A stretch of 64,000 bases of DNA, from assembly GCA_964187785.1 (NCBI GenBank), contig OZ076409.1:13518001-13582000 (forward strand). Direction: 5' to 3'. A model generated the notes under the pieces. It saw nothing but the letters and a program-made list of their open reading frames with translations. It ran no database searches and had not been told where the DNA came from. Positions 31,001 through 33,683 of this stretch are shown one piece after another; the stretch's first letter is position 1, and each line of letters opens with the position of its first letter. Source of the DNA: Amphiscolops sp. MND2022 (Eukaryota). Position numbers and translations under genes: made by a program.

Positions 31001-33683
31001 GAACTAGTATACAACCAGTACCAACGTTCGAAGAATCGACGTGTATGTGGAAGGGGTACTCAGTTGAAGGGACAGCAAGAATAGTGTCCTCACATATACG
31101 ACTTTTTATATCAGTGAAGAGGTCTTCGTGTTCTTTCGTCCATTTGAAAGGCGTTGTAGCTTTTATCAAATCGTAGAAGGGCTGGCTATCCACGTGTAAG
31201 TTTTTGATATAGCAACTGTAAAATCCAAGACAGCCAAGTACTTTCATCACATCTCTTTTACTTTCGGGTGATTTTAAGTTCTTTAGATCCTGTACTCTTT
31301 TTGCTAAGGGTTGTATTCCTTGTTCAGAAATAACATGTCCTAGGAATTTGACTTTCCTGATGAAGAAATTCGTCTTCTCAGGTGCAGCTTTAAGTCCGGC
31401 TTTCCTCAGGAGCTGATGGTACTCATGAATTATCGTGAACATTTCTTGTTTGGTCTGAGCCTGCATAAGACTGTCATCAAGATAGGTGATAGCTTGTTTT
31501 CGCTTGATGAGGGGCTCAAAATGTATAGCCATGAGACGGCTAAAAAAGTTTGGAAGTCCACAGAGTCCGTAGAAACCGCGTACATACGTGTACTGTTTTC
31601 CGCCGATAATAAAACTAGTGAGTTTTTGGGTCTCGTCGCTCAAAGGTACTTGGTGATATGCGCAGGATAAATCGCTGACCGTGAAGTACTTTCCGTTAAT
31701 CCGAGTCATAATCATCTGAATGGGTTCCAATGGCCACGAGTAATTTGTCAGATCTGTTATGGAGTTTAAGTAGCGGGCGTCGATTACTAACTTTACGTAG
31801 TCTGCTTTGGGCATTAGAATGATCGGATTGACAAAAAGGGAACCTAATTCGTCATCGTCTCCCATTTCTCTAATGATACCGGCTTCTTGGAGTTGTCCAA
31901 GTAGCTTCTCAAGTTTGTCCTTCAAGTGAAGGGGTACTTTGCTTGGTCGTTGTTTCTTGAGTTCTGAATTGGCTTTGAGTGTTACGTGAAATTTTTGACG
32001 TACTTTTCCGACGTCAAATTTGTGTTGTGAGTACACGTCCGCTGAGTCAATAAGCATGTCTATCAAGACAACCAATTCTTCATCTTCGAGGTCAGTATAT
32101 CGGAAATCGAATTTCTTTACATATTCCTTGATTTCCTCAGGCTGATATTGGAGATAGTAATCAATTAGTGCGTCATTGTCTTCTTTTGCTCTAAGCTCGA
32201 CAAATTGTTCTGTACAGGGTGGCTGACACGATTTAGCATCCGTAGCAAAATCTGTTTCAAGTTCTTCAGTACCATTAGCAAATTGTTCTGTATAATAGTC
32301 AATATCTCCTTCTTCTATTTCTTCTTTTCGTATGGAAGCGTTAACAAATTGGAGGTTCGGTTCGTTTCGTGATACGATCTCGACTTTAATATGTCCATAA
32401 TCGAAGCTGTTACGGATTATGTCCAAAGCTCCTTTCCAGTGAATGTTATCTAAGCCATCTTCAATTTTGGGTATTGAAATTGCAGGTATATTGTTTAGTT
32501 GTGCGTGTCCAACCAAATTTTCGATGCAACTGCGAAAATCTTCGGGTTTAATTTTTTCGTAACATCTCTTTTTTGCAACTAGTCCATAGATGAAGCGACT
32601 GGCTTCGTTATCCCAAAAGGGTAAAACTGATCCGACGAAAGGTTTCGACTGGTTCACGAAATTCTGAAAATCTTTCTTCTGTTCGCACAACCTTTTTGCG
32701 AACGTGGTTGTCATTTTTCCATCTGCTGAGACACAAAAGGCTAGATTTGCATTTGAGGCTCGAAGGGTCTCGCCGGAGCCGTGGCTTAGAAAAACTTGTT
32801 GATCTCCTTCGTGTTCGAAGGGAACTGTTGAGTGTAACAAGAAACAGTCGTTGTAGTCTGGGTTTTCCTTTAAAATTGTGTTGACCATCGTGACGCAATC
32901 CTTTATCTGGAACTTTGGTCGTTCTTTTTCCTGTAGGTCTATGATAGCATGACCAATTATTCCTCTATTAAGGGTTATTTGGTGATTTCGATTATTTTCA
33001 ATCAAAATTGGCAGGTGAGATTCGGACTTCGTACATAAAACATTCACAAAGGTGAGTCCTGTTTTGACTGCATTTTTGTGGGGTGTGAATGATGTTCCGG
33101 GTGCAAAATGTCTGTTATTTTCGCGGGAGTACTTGTGTAGGCGGGTAGTTTTGGCATCGATGCAAATTGGGTTATCTGTTCGTATTGTTTCGACCTTTGA
33201 AACGTATGGGAAAGGTTTGGTAGCACAAAGGTTACCGTAGCAAATCGTGTTAGGACTGTCTTTCAATTCGATTGCAGGCAAATCAAAATGTAATTTAGAA
33301 ACAAGTTGACGGCAGAAATCTATTCCCAGTAAATTGGGTGTCTTCGCTTCTGTTATCCAAAACTTTAGCTCTACAGGATGGAGTCCATCCGAGTCGAAAC
33401 TGAATGTGATTGTTGTTGATCCAAGCATCGGTATAACTTCACCAGTATAGGTTTTAGTCAGCTGTTTGCTCCTGACTACCGTGATGGATTGTCCAAACTG
33501 TGCAATCTCCTCAAAAGCTCTGTAATTGATGATTGAACAGGCTGCTCCTGTATCTAGCATGAATTCTATTTCTAACCCACTATCTTTTTTGGAGTCTCCG
33601 GTGGGAAAAAAGAAGAGATTTAGGTGAAAACGTGATTTGAGGTTACTTTCTTCGTCAGGTCGCGGAGACTTTAGCAGTTTAAA
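28095..33683 (-). CDS. pol: Pol polyprotein: protease, dUTPase-like remnant, macrodomain, RT, RNase H, integrase (expressed by -1 frameshift)
   Basis: LDTGA; LAFCVSAD...IYGLVAK...IPKIEDGLD; YLDD; HVDSS/YCDHKP; H-x-H...CLQC, HIDH, HDNG, GKVE; GPF. The frame is open from the slippery site at 33683. Confidence 0.96.
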   Translation of the reverse strand, partial: FKLLKSPRPDEESNLKSRFHLNLFFFPTGDSKKDSGLEIEFMLDTGAACSIINYRAFEEIAQFGQSITVVRSKQLTKTYTGEVIPMLGSTTITFSFDSDGLHPVELKFWITEAKTPNLLGIDFCRQLVSKLHFDLPAIELKDSPNTICYGNLCATKPFPYVSKVETIRTDNPICIDAKTTRLHKYSRENNRHFAPGTSFTPHKNAVKTGLTFVNVLCTKSESHLPILIENNRNHQITLNRGIIGHAIIDLQEKERPKFQIKDCVTMVNTILKENPDYNDCFLLHSTVPFEHEGDQQVFLSHGSGETLRASNANLAFCVSADGKMTTTFAKRLCEQKKDFQNFVNQSKPFVGSVLPFWDNEASRFIYGLVAKKRCYEKIKPEDFRSCIENLVGHAQLNNIPAISIPKIEDGLDNIHWKGALDIIRNSFDYGHIKVEIVSRNEPNLQFVNASIRKEEIEEGDIDYYTEQFANGTEELETDFATDAKSCQPPCTEQFVELRAKEDNDALIDYYLQYQPEEIKEYVKKFDFRYTDLEDEELVVLIDMLIDSADVYSQHKFDVGKVRQKFHVTLKANSELKKQRPSKVPLHLKDKLEKLLGQLQEAGIIREMGDDDELGSLFVNPIILMPKADYVKLVIDARYLNSITDLTNYSWPLEPIQMIMTRINGKYFTVSDLSCAYHQVPLSDETQKLTSFIIGGKQYTYVRGFYGLCGLPNFFSRLMAIHFEPLIKRKQAITYLDDSLMQAQTKQEMFTIIHEYHQLLRKAGLKAAPEKTNFFIRKVKFLGHVISEQGIQPLAKRVQDLKNLKSPESKRDVMKVLGCLGFYSCYIKNLHVDSQPFYDLIKATTPFKWTKEHEDLFTDIKSRICEDTILAVPSTEYPFHIHVDSSNVGTGCILVQQFPEGKRIVSFNSRVFDKAEQKMSTLHRELCGIVSALQTYEHYIIGSPFPIYLYCDHKPILYLWGRKGQLSHRFFKYQVIITKFQNLKIIWTKGSNLAFPDILSRNVTLEETKNLQKLHKEIPRDISFYDEIGSKIHYAIEHNDDGHCGSNDFFPILCQKGKDQRLLHLKNDGEEHEVEHYENQQTVMATRQDIADCFKLGKSINQYKNLCLPSYKIQYEPEYSRIDDIETDSSDDEEEVAELHLSSEDHEFYRDKSTAKEKNISQKSERPLLNKNLDVEQFPHVDTKDLLQKLSDYSKTADLDITTLVAEQINDPVLQIVRAWVRNKNKPNTKTPEIHQSKALLSYFNNFNQLFLDKESNLLCYNEPIHGTDKCEMKICVPLSLFLPLFNLAHAHTHSGHPGIFKTFENIRQNFFWPGRYKWIVSLIEDCLQCQTNKSKRHDLQEAPLEQWGELETTPFKTIHIDHKGPIRPSSNLNTHCLVVVDAFSRFLGVYPVRDTGAQTTINALEKWITSYGIPQKIVHDNGSAFINRDFVNWTKEFGITLAPRTAYSPWTNGKVEVQNKHLMRYWRNFTNESGNNWSTLASKFAFAHNTSVNYTTGMTPYEMVFGVKPQIPMTLKLGLIRDKNKQCKSEFCADLQPHTHSENNLRNKSLDRLLRPQLSSELLTRENDFKSIYSSTYKRCREITSKAHEYRNRFKLGRPLAVGQKVLLENHKPDLSKSQKLKQLRVGPFTVTKQITNTTYEIKEDENPENVKVTHRNHLLEYFPKEETLPPLLTNYAPVEQDDNFYKHLIQTQIDKHNSGQPEHKLDFMPLIITPLSGPSNNTSKGSEFSPSTDSGFLSPKTPQFHTPIPSTSSNTAPGERTPQSCKTNPLPPMQTPRLPVAVLPLAFSSNTPLPKRTPVLPSVPPIHTVSPPDQNSPKTGKLSNFKKKVSTRFSEKPKDPKYERSTPGSSLRDIERKGYKD
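33593..33683 (-). promoter_or_regulatory. Programmed -1 ribosomal frameshift signal
   Basis: U UUA AAC in the gag frame (33683-33677), a 6-nt spacer, then AGUCUCCG, which can pair with CGGAGACU (33600-33593). Confidence 0.8.

Follow-up and report, generated by a model that had tools for sequence, protein, structure and literature searches.

What does a macrodomain do inside the Pol protein of an LTR retroelement, and does the copy at this locus still do it? The question arises in the window, the whole stretch of 64,000 nucleotides of Amphiscolops sp. MND2022 that was analysed, where the original prediction had read a TARG1-like macrodomain with altered loops.

An env-bearing Ty3/gypsy element hosts the domain

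The host of the domain is a young Ty3/gypsy LTR retroelement of 19.3 kb with an env-like gene. All its genes, domains and LTRs are read on the minus strand. It was classified by its LTRs with a target-site duplication, its gag gene and the pol order protease, reverse transcriptase (RT), RNase H, integrase. The 5' LTR (35108-37182; ends TGT...ACA) and the 3' LTR (17884-19958) are both 2075 bp long and have 2 differences. They are flanked by a 4 bp target duplication, CAAT, at 17880-17883 and 37183-37186.

The gag frame (33671-35089, 472 aa) overlaps the open pol frame (P0001, 28095-33701, 1868 aa), and at the overlap lies the heptamer TTTAAAC (33677-33683), by its pattern a candidate -1 frameshift site. 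Pol consists of an aspartic protease, an unnamed region, the macrodomain, RT, RNase H and integrase, in this order. The protease (33306-33578) has a DTG motif and Pfam matches below the cut-off (E 0.002-0.008). Pfam matches were obtained for RT, with its YLDD motif, and RNase H at 30747-31703 and for the integrase zinc finger and core at 29337-29855. An open reading frame for an env-like fusion glycoprotein (21291-23447; PF24664, E 4.8e-39) sits between pol and the 3' LTR, which is the layout of env-bearing Ty3/gypsy elements of the gB type. An accessory frame (19982-20755) contains a TRAF-C (MATH) domain by Pfam, with neither a RING nor a zinc-finger match.

About 150 residues between the protease and the macrodomain are unnamed. 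A dUTPase-like reading of this region (Pol residues about 160-285) was not supported: it had no Pfam match, the Atlas clusters were unnamed (0.90-0.91) and a pairwise test against the neighbouring element gave only E 0.2.

The insert in Pol is a TARG1-type macrodomain

The TARG1-like motifs that had been proposed for Pol were all found on the minus strand within the one open frame, namely LAFCVS (32744-32727), VAKKR (32579-32565), IEDGLD (32465-32448) and IKVEIV (32390-32373). The macrodomain covers 32370-32795, or Pol residues 303-444, and lies, as expected from the original prediction, between the protease motif LDTGA (residues 49-53) and the RT motif YLDD (residues 740-743). With an acidic linker it forms an insert at approximately 32268-32840 (Pol residues about 288-478), a place where relatives without the insert have about 20-30 residues.

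When the domain was searched with phmmer against 177,635 PDB sequences, 6 matches to E 10 were obtained. Human TARG1/C6orf130 accounted for five of them (E 3.6e-11 to 4.5e-11); the remaining match was far weaker (E 0.86), ten orders behind. The Pfam Macro score was 17.9 bits, under the 22-bit cut-off. AF2 with a 97-row alignment predicted the macrodomain with a pLDDT of 87.4, in a model that leans on TARG1-like homologs (pLDDT 35 in a single-sequence run). The Foldseek comparison that had been suggested as a check placed TARG1 first and then DarG among the top 8 matches to the predicted structure, and the superposition on TARG1 had a Z of 21.5 and an rmsd of 1.8 over 144 residues. The domain is therefore confirmed as a TARG1/OARD1-type macrodomain of the ALC1-like class.

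Human TARG1 (OARD1, C6orf130; 4J5Q, 4J5R, 4J5S, 2L8R) is the best match in sequence and structure, at about 25% identity, whereas the element domain is embedded in a retroelement polyprotein. The DarG macrodomain (5M31, 5M3E, 5M3I) and SCO6735 (5E3B) share its fold class, with Z values of 19.3 and 17.0, but have 11-17% identity and ranked below TARG1. The catalytic lysine is present in DarG as well (PMC8501950). The scanned frames of the element showed no DarT-like partner.

The ADP-ribose pocket is altered

Residues were equated by combining the 4J5Q chain numbering (7-152) with the phmmer alignment. The catalytic pair expected of an active hydrolase, which had been predicted to be kept, is present as Lys377 (32571-32573; TARG1 Lys84) and Asp418 (32448-32450; TARG1 Asp125). 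Gly123 of loop 2 (Gly416), Ala45, Ser35 and Asp37 (TARG1 numbering) are also kept. The predicted changes in both glycine-rich loops were seen in the alignment, and the element differs from TARG1 at His32, Gly41, Gly43, Ile44, Thr83, Gly121 and Cys122. The phosphate-binding loop 1 reads TTTFA (32697-32711; TARG1 41-45) with Thr at the Gly43 position, where 121/134 other domains have Gly; one full-length copy has Lys there. The pocket residues His32, Thr83, Gly121 and Cys122 are changed in all four cases. We presume that His32 and Thr83 have a catalytic role in TARG1.

The loop residues were surveyed in relatives, and the focal residues proved to be rare among other TARG1-like domains (1/134 at Gly43, 3/129 at His32, 1/146 at Thr83, 2/144 at Gly121 and 2/143 at Cys122); in these residue comparisons and in the site comparisons below, P0071 and P0073 are counted as other domains, yet fall inside the element clade in the macrodomain tree. 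Of 16 conserved pocket positions, a list of our own choice, 15 were kept in three sister families and 10 in the focal family. The altered motifs are common to most copies of that family.

In TARG1, the mutation G43E abolished binding and catalysis (PMC5928194). An in silico scan in the same study, which at Gly43 tried Glu, Leu and Arg but not Thr, predicted little loss of binding at His32, Thr83, Gly121 and Cys122; G121E and C122E were predicted to be tolerated (Table S2 in PMC5928194), so the changes in loop 2 say little. A Lys/Asp catalytic dyad has been described, and SCO6735, which has neither of these two residues, is active (PMC9411070). The class can therefore rework its active site.

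The domain was captured once in one clade

A macrodomain at this site was found in 9 of 105 Pol relatives. In an RT tree of 34 rows the carriers formed one clade (starred 99/95) nested among non-carriers, and five close relatives had no macrodomain. The domain was full length in 52/52 site-spanning proteins of the clade and in 0/13 of two outside families, and deletions of it were found in 0/28 site-spanning proteins from decayed families. These results show a single capture: the domain entered Pol in frame, immediately before RT, in the common ancestor of a single Ty3/gypsy clade. P0254 was dropped as a carrier, being noise (7 bits, E 0.016). The donor was not named by a quick macrodomain tree (81 rows, 144 columns), where 43/78 branches were open.

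The initial homolog search gave 1 of 197 candidates, only the family's own cluster. A search for longer proteins gave 19 matches, mostly clade members, a number that is not a gauge of how widely macrodomains are spread in gypsy elements. A JGI metagenome scan found 67 matching stretches, 0 of them confirmed.

The focal macrodomain has changed rapidly

Lineage-specific changes in the macrodomain numbered 32 in the focal lineage against 5 in the sister (p 7e-6), about six times faster, and 30 against 5 in a second comparison (p 2e-5), at the protein level, where relaxed and positive selection are not separable. No other Pol region was significant in this comparison. Among sites fixed in three sister families, 27/57 were changed in the focal macrodomain and 8/190 in RT. 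The macrodomain changes were spread over the pocket (8/20), the core (14/24) and other sites (5/13), which fits what relaxation predicts. In the hydrophobic core, 31/36 sites remained hydrophobic, compared with a background of 43%. Two more lineages have decayed separately. Lys84 is kept in all three, and position 125 is acidic in most members.

A probable captured eraser and the state of the focal copy

Judged from the sequences, we lean towards the reading that the clade acquired an enzyme that erases ADP-ribose, of which the focal domain is a copy, still folded but weakened or dead. A macrodomain borne on Gag-Pol would be packaged along with RNA and RT. The ancestral domain most likely freed the element's proteins, or its single-stranded cDNA or RNA, of host ADP-ribose, a role that we infer from its class and from the pocket conserved in most sister families. 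In the focal family, constraint on the domain would have relaxed while the fold was retained. With the key glycine of the phosphate-binding loop lost and other pocket residues drifted, the focal enzyme would most likely be weak or dead, and the domain may have been kept since the polyprotein can accommodate a compact folded unit. The absence of deletions in the 28 proteins of decayed families may mean that the domain is still needed; for the focal copy by itself, ordinary decay is likelier. Of the original prediction, the fold, the class and the insertion stand, and the proposed protective removal of ADP-ribose fits the sisters better than the focal copy.

It is possible, with less probability, that the focal domain has retained ADP-ribosyl hydrolase activity in a pocket retuned, for instance, for another substrate or for escape from a host factor, and that it protects cDNA or Pol as the original prediction proposed. 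The catalytic pair, Gly123 and Ala45 are kept and the loop 2 changes are predicted to be tolerated, but changes are present at Gly43, His32 and Thr83. By its LTRs (2 differences in 2075 bp) the element is young and intact, and most copies share the altered motifs, but no part of the domain concentrates the changes. Kept sites of the three decayed lineages overlapped at chance level (11 against 8.2 expected, p 0.13). Within the focal family, 29/142 macrodomain columns were variable against 12/126 in the neighbouring region (p 0.017), unlike in three canonical families, where no such excess was observed (p 0.5-0.9).

A wider proposal, which we hold to be somewhat less likely again, is that animal hosts ADP-ribosylate the single-stranded cDNA, RNA or proteins of LTR elements to defend themselves. 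Ty3/gypsy lineages would then have captured, more than once, an eraser of the TARG1/DarG class, a class able to remove thymidine-linked ADP-ribose, and would package it together with RT; the fast-evolving copy of the focal env/TRAF family would be a retuned enzyme or decoy in this conflict, not a relic.

We consider it rather unlikely, though the original prediction named a repurposed binding module as its second option, that the domain is a non-catalytic binder or decoy, which would hold RNA, cDNA, poly(ADP-ribose) or a host protein by patches outside the pocket. Its net charge is just +2 (18 basic, 16 acidic residues; sisters range from 0 to +5) and the decayed lineages have no shared new surface signature, although all three retain the full-length domain and its core. 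RNA binding by TARG1 does not depend on the pocket and persists in G43E and G123E (PMC5928194), and among coronavirus macrodomains inactive ones bind nucleic acids (PMC10221186).

It is very improbable that the domain has always been a passenger of no use to the element: families of relatives that lack it have 20 to 373 member sequences, but the sisters keep 15/16 pocket positions across long macrodomain branches, and unrelated gypsy Pols bear canonical-looking TARG1-type domains at other Pol sites. Chance resemblance, an assembly artefact or a nested foreign insertion, to which the low Pfam score and single-sequence pLDDT might point, is refuted by the TARG1 match (E 4e-11, ten orders ahead of the next), the carriage by relatives and the full-length retention in the clade, and is further opposed by the single open frame, the same Pol protein on other contigs and a GC of 0.408, like the flanks (0.402-0.444).

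Relation to known macrodomains

Macro domains have been noted in some retrotransposon families, and it is accepted that viral macrodomains counteract ADP-ribosylation by the host. The conflict-linked macrodomains of alphaviruses, coronaviruses and PARPs, which are of the MacroD type, have likewise decayed repeatedly and independently; these have been assayed, whereas the TARG1-type domain in the retroelement is known from sequence and predicted structure. A TARG1-type domain in gypsy Pol was not found described in the literature covered, most subscription papers and Repbase being outside its scope.

Among endogenous retroviruses, epsilon-like ones of fish have Macro domain ORFs (Basta 2009, cited in PMC4977317). 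As far as this secondary account goes, they too are LTR retroelements with a macrodomain, of unstated class, but there it is an additional ORF in retroviruses and here an in-frame Pol module in Ty3/gypsy. The env-bearing Ty3/gypsy elements with a gB-type, Chuviridae-like glycoprotein (PMC13524379) share the gag-pol-env layout and the PF24664 glycoprotein. Unlike them, our element has 19.3 kb, 2 kb LTRs and accessory frames, and the words 'macro' and 'TRAF' are absent from the main text on those elements.

Removal of thymidine-linked ADP-ribose by the sister domains, if it occurs, would be a hint of a DNA-tagging enzyme in animals, of a kind not known in human cells (PMC8501950). The clade offers a natural series of domain-less relatives, sisters with an intact pocket and three lineages with a decayed pocket, which lets one ask whether host ADP-ribose tagging restricts LTR retroelements. 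Unrelated gypsy elements have TARG1-type domains at several places in Pol, which suggests a repeated benefit.

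A TARG1-type macrodomain in the Pol of a Ty3/gypsy element

The macrodomain is carried by a young, env-bearing Ty3/gypsy element, probably of an animal host, at 17884-37182 on the minus strand. The element is bounded by two LTRs of 2075 bp each with TGT...ACA ends, which differ at 2 sites, and is flanked by a CAAT target duplication. It encodes gag, pol and an env-like glycoprotein (PF24664) as well as a TRAF-C frame, and belongs to the broad kind described in PMC13524379, where 'macro' does not occur in the accessible main text. A candidate tRNA primer-binding site with a TGG start is located just inside the 5' LTR (35086-35107, minus strand). 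The heptamer TTTAAAC (33677-33683, minus strand), just ahead of the gag stop and within the overlap with the pol frame, suits a candidate -1 frameshift site.

Pol is encoded in a single open frame of 1868 codons (28095-33701, minus strand) with the order protease, RT, RNase H and integrase. As the original prediction had proposed, the macrodomain (32370-32795, Pol residues 303-444) lies between protease and RT, in frame ahead of RT, and all the motifs quoted for it were found at 32744 to 32373 on the minus strand. When a 159-residue piece was searched against 177,635 PDB sequences, five sequences of human TARG1/C6orf130 were matched with E values of 3.6e-11 to 4.5e-11, and the next match had an E value of 0.86. 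The Pfam Macro score was 17.9 bits, under the cut-off of 22, and routine annotation therefore overlooks the domain.

The AlphaFold model was poor from the single sequence (pLDDT 35) and confident with a 97-row alignment (pLDDT 87.4). Foldseek, suggested earlier for the comparison with TARG1, ranked eight TARG1 chains on top and DarG after them. For TARG1, VIA-align gave a Z of 21.5 with an rmsd of 1.8 across 144 residues, and the Z for DarG was 19.3; since the model leans on TARG1-like homologs, this fold match depends partly on the sequence match. The PDB matches and the structural comparisons bear out a TARG1-like macrodomain in Pol, and the domain is a true member of the TARG1 fold class. 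It is not classed as an active TARG1 enzyme.

The macrodomain was gained once in one clade

The RT-region search returned 105 Pol proteins, and a macrodomain profile detected the domain at the same site in 9 of them. In five close relatives, with 64-70% identity over the region searched, Pol residues ~288-478 were absent and some 20-30 residues stood in their place. The RT-RNase H tree (34 rows) grouped the carriers and one protein truncated past the site in a clade (support 99/95) nested among non-carriers, and paired the window's Pol with its homolog P0169 (97/92). We then sampled 15 members from each of eight clusters and 15 from the focal family's own cluster, which holds 168 member sequences. 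All 52 site-spanning clade proteins kept at least 135 of the 142 macrodomain positions, and the domain was found in 0 of 13 site-spanning proteins of two outside families. The GC content of the macrodomain resembles that of its flanks. The clade gained the macrodomain in one event, by in-frame capture ahead of RT.

The pocket is altered in the focal family

The pocket is conserved across most sister families. Three of them kept 15 of 16 conserved positions, the sole change being at Ile44 and common to the whole clade, whereas the focal family kept 10 of 16. Known substrates of the TARG1 class are ADP-ribose on proteins, single-stranded DNA or RNA. As part of Gag-Pol, the macrodomain would enter the particle beside RT, where the sister domains would probably erase host ADP-ribose from element proteins or single-stranded cDNA/RNA.

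The focal family retains Ser35, Asp37, Ala45, Lys84, Gly123 and Asp125 (human TARG1 numbering) and is altered at His32, Gly43, Thr83, Gly121 and Cys122. The prediction that the Lys84/Asp125 equivalents are kept and the glycine-rich loops changed was thus correct, with Ala45 and Gly123 of the loops still in place. A survey of these residues showed that the focal ones are rare among other TARG1-like domains: 3/129 at His32, 1/134 at Gly43, 1/146 at Thr83, 2/144 at Gly121 and 2/143 at Cys122, in a set of 147 domains (from 133 of 150 hits, 17 being removed as clade members) that still includes two clade entries.

In the available text of PMC5928194, the TARG1 replacements G43E, I44E and G123E abolish both binding and catalysis, RNA binding persists in G43E and G123E, and in an in silico table substitutions are largely tolerated at positions 121 and 122 and not at 43, 44, 45 and 123. 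Because of this tolerance, the case against ADP-ribose binding is mainly Gly43, where that paper covers Glu, Leu and Arg and the focal family has Thr. One full-length copy has Lys at this position. Catalysis in TARG1 and DarG involves Lys84, and SCO6735 is functional without the Lys/Asp dyad (accessible parts of PMC8501950 and PMC9411070, respectively).

The focal macrodomain has changed faster with its core preserved

With two outgroups, private macrodomain changes in the focal lineage versus the sister were 32 vs 5 (p 7e-6) and 30 vs 5 (p 2e-5). The other Pol regions showed no significant lineage difference (RT, 8 vs 16). Sites fixed in three sister families were changed in the focal family at 27/57 positions of the macrodomain, compared with 4/53 in the protease, 12/60 in the post-protease region, 5/42 in the linker and 8/190 in RT. 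The 27 changes were spread alike over pocket (8/20), core (14/24) and other sites (5/13). Hydrophobic residues occupied 31/36 core sites in the focal family and 34/36 in the sisters, against a background of 43%.

Within families, where p values are loose because the members are related, variable columns in the focal family were 29/142 in the macrodomain and 12/126 in the neighbouring region (p 0.017). A second decayed family had 20/141 and 1/125, a third a weak excess (39 vs 23, p 0.08), and three canonical families had no macrodomain excess (p 0.5-0.9). Pocket residues were also lost in two further lineages, one of P0174/P0175 with P0036 and one of P0182, in differing ways and at separate positions in the tree.

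Lys84 is present in all three decayed lineages, but the sites kept in them did not overlap significantly more than expected by chance (11 vs 8.2, p 0.13).

The most probable reading for the focal family's domain, with moderate confidence, is a copy that is weakened or dead. A retuned enzyme is possible and less likely, and a binder or decoy that would act independently of the pocket is less likely still. The rate data are at protein level and cannot separate relaxed from positive selection.

TARG1-type domains in other proteins

A Pfam scan of 31 of the 150 hits identified seven LTR-element polyprotein pieces outside the clade with canonical-looking TARG1-type domains. The macrodomain followed RNase H in P0069, P0138 (named from the sawfly Athalia rosae) and P0066, integrase in P0150, an integrase zinc finger in P0103, and the protease in P0086 and P0159, with the start of RT next in P0086. 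The three of these pieces with RT were placed far from the clade in the RT-RNase H tree. The differing Pol positions suggest separate captures, the macrodomain tree being too weak to count them or to name a donor. Macro domains also occur in repeat-library entries.

The earlier remark that some other retroelements have macrodomains agrees with these seven pieces and with fish endogenous retroviruses, which have macro domains as extra ORFs (available part of PMC4977317). From the portions accessible, viruses commonly have TARG1-like homologs with missing residues (PMC4245714), and alphaviruses have repeatedly lost macrodomain activity (PMC10221186). In the literature, of which coverage was incomplete, no TARG1-type domain was found described for a gypsy Pol, and this case is not described in the available parts of PMC6338049 and bioRxiv 10.1101/2021.11.30.470311. 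The value lies mainly in the series of gain and decay that the clade shows, less so in this single copy.

P0046, P0394, P0396, P0397, P0063 and P0147, one of which bears the name of the copepod Tigriopus californicus, combine a TARG1-type macrodomain with DNA ligase III-type or LIG3 BRCT domains. Among RNA-virus proteins, a polyprotein of 3401 aa with RdRP and helicase (P0078) has such a macrodomain at its N-terminus, and another was seen in a protein named from a crayfish tombus-like virus (P0400).

Other features of the element and the window

Just before the 3' LTR the element has a TRAF-C/MATH frame of 257 aa (19982-20755, minus strand; E 1.2e-12 to TRAF1, Pfam E 8e-22), in which no RING or zinc-finger match was found. 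It may be a TRAF decoy and a second host-signalling module of the same element. Three accessory frames (20771-21334, 23979-24608 and 25404-25841, minus strand) had no Pfam matches, and tandem repeats of 51-112 bp form an array inside the element at 24675-25311.

A second, broken Ty3/gypsy element (44779-60547) has repeats of ~1.6 kb that are 96.5% identical and a pol in pieces; no macrodomain was found in it by tblastn. Two long overlapping frames of 684 and 912 aa (3108-7596, plus strand) gave only weak C2H2 or DUF559 matches in Pfam. Together with an inverted-repeat pair of 41-46 bp, ~1.4 kb apart (8881-10424), they may be parts of a DNA transposon.
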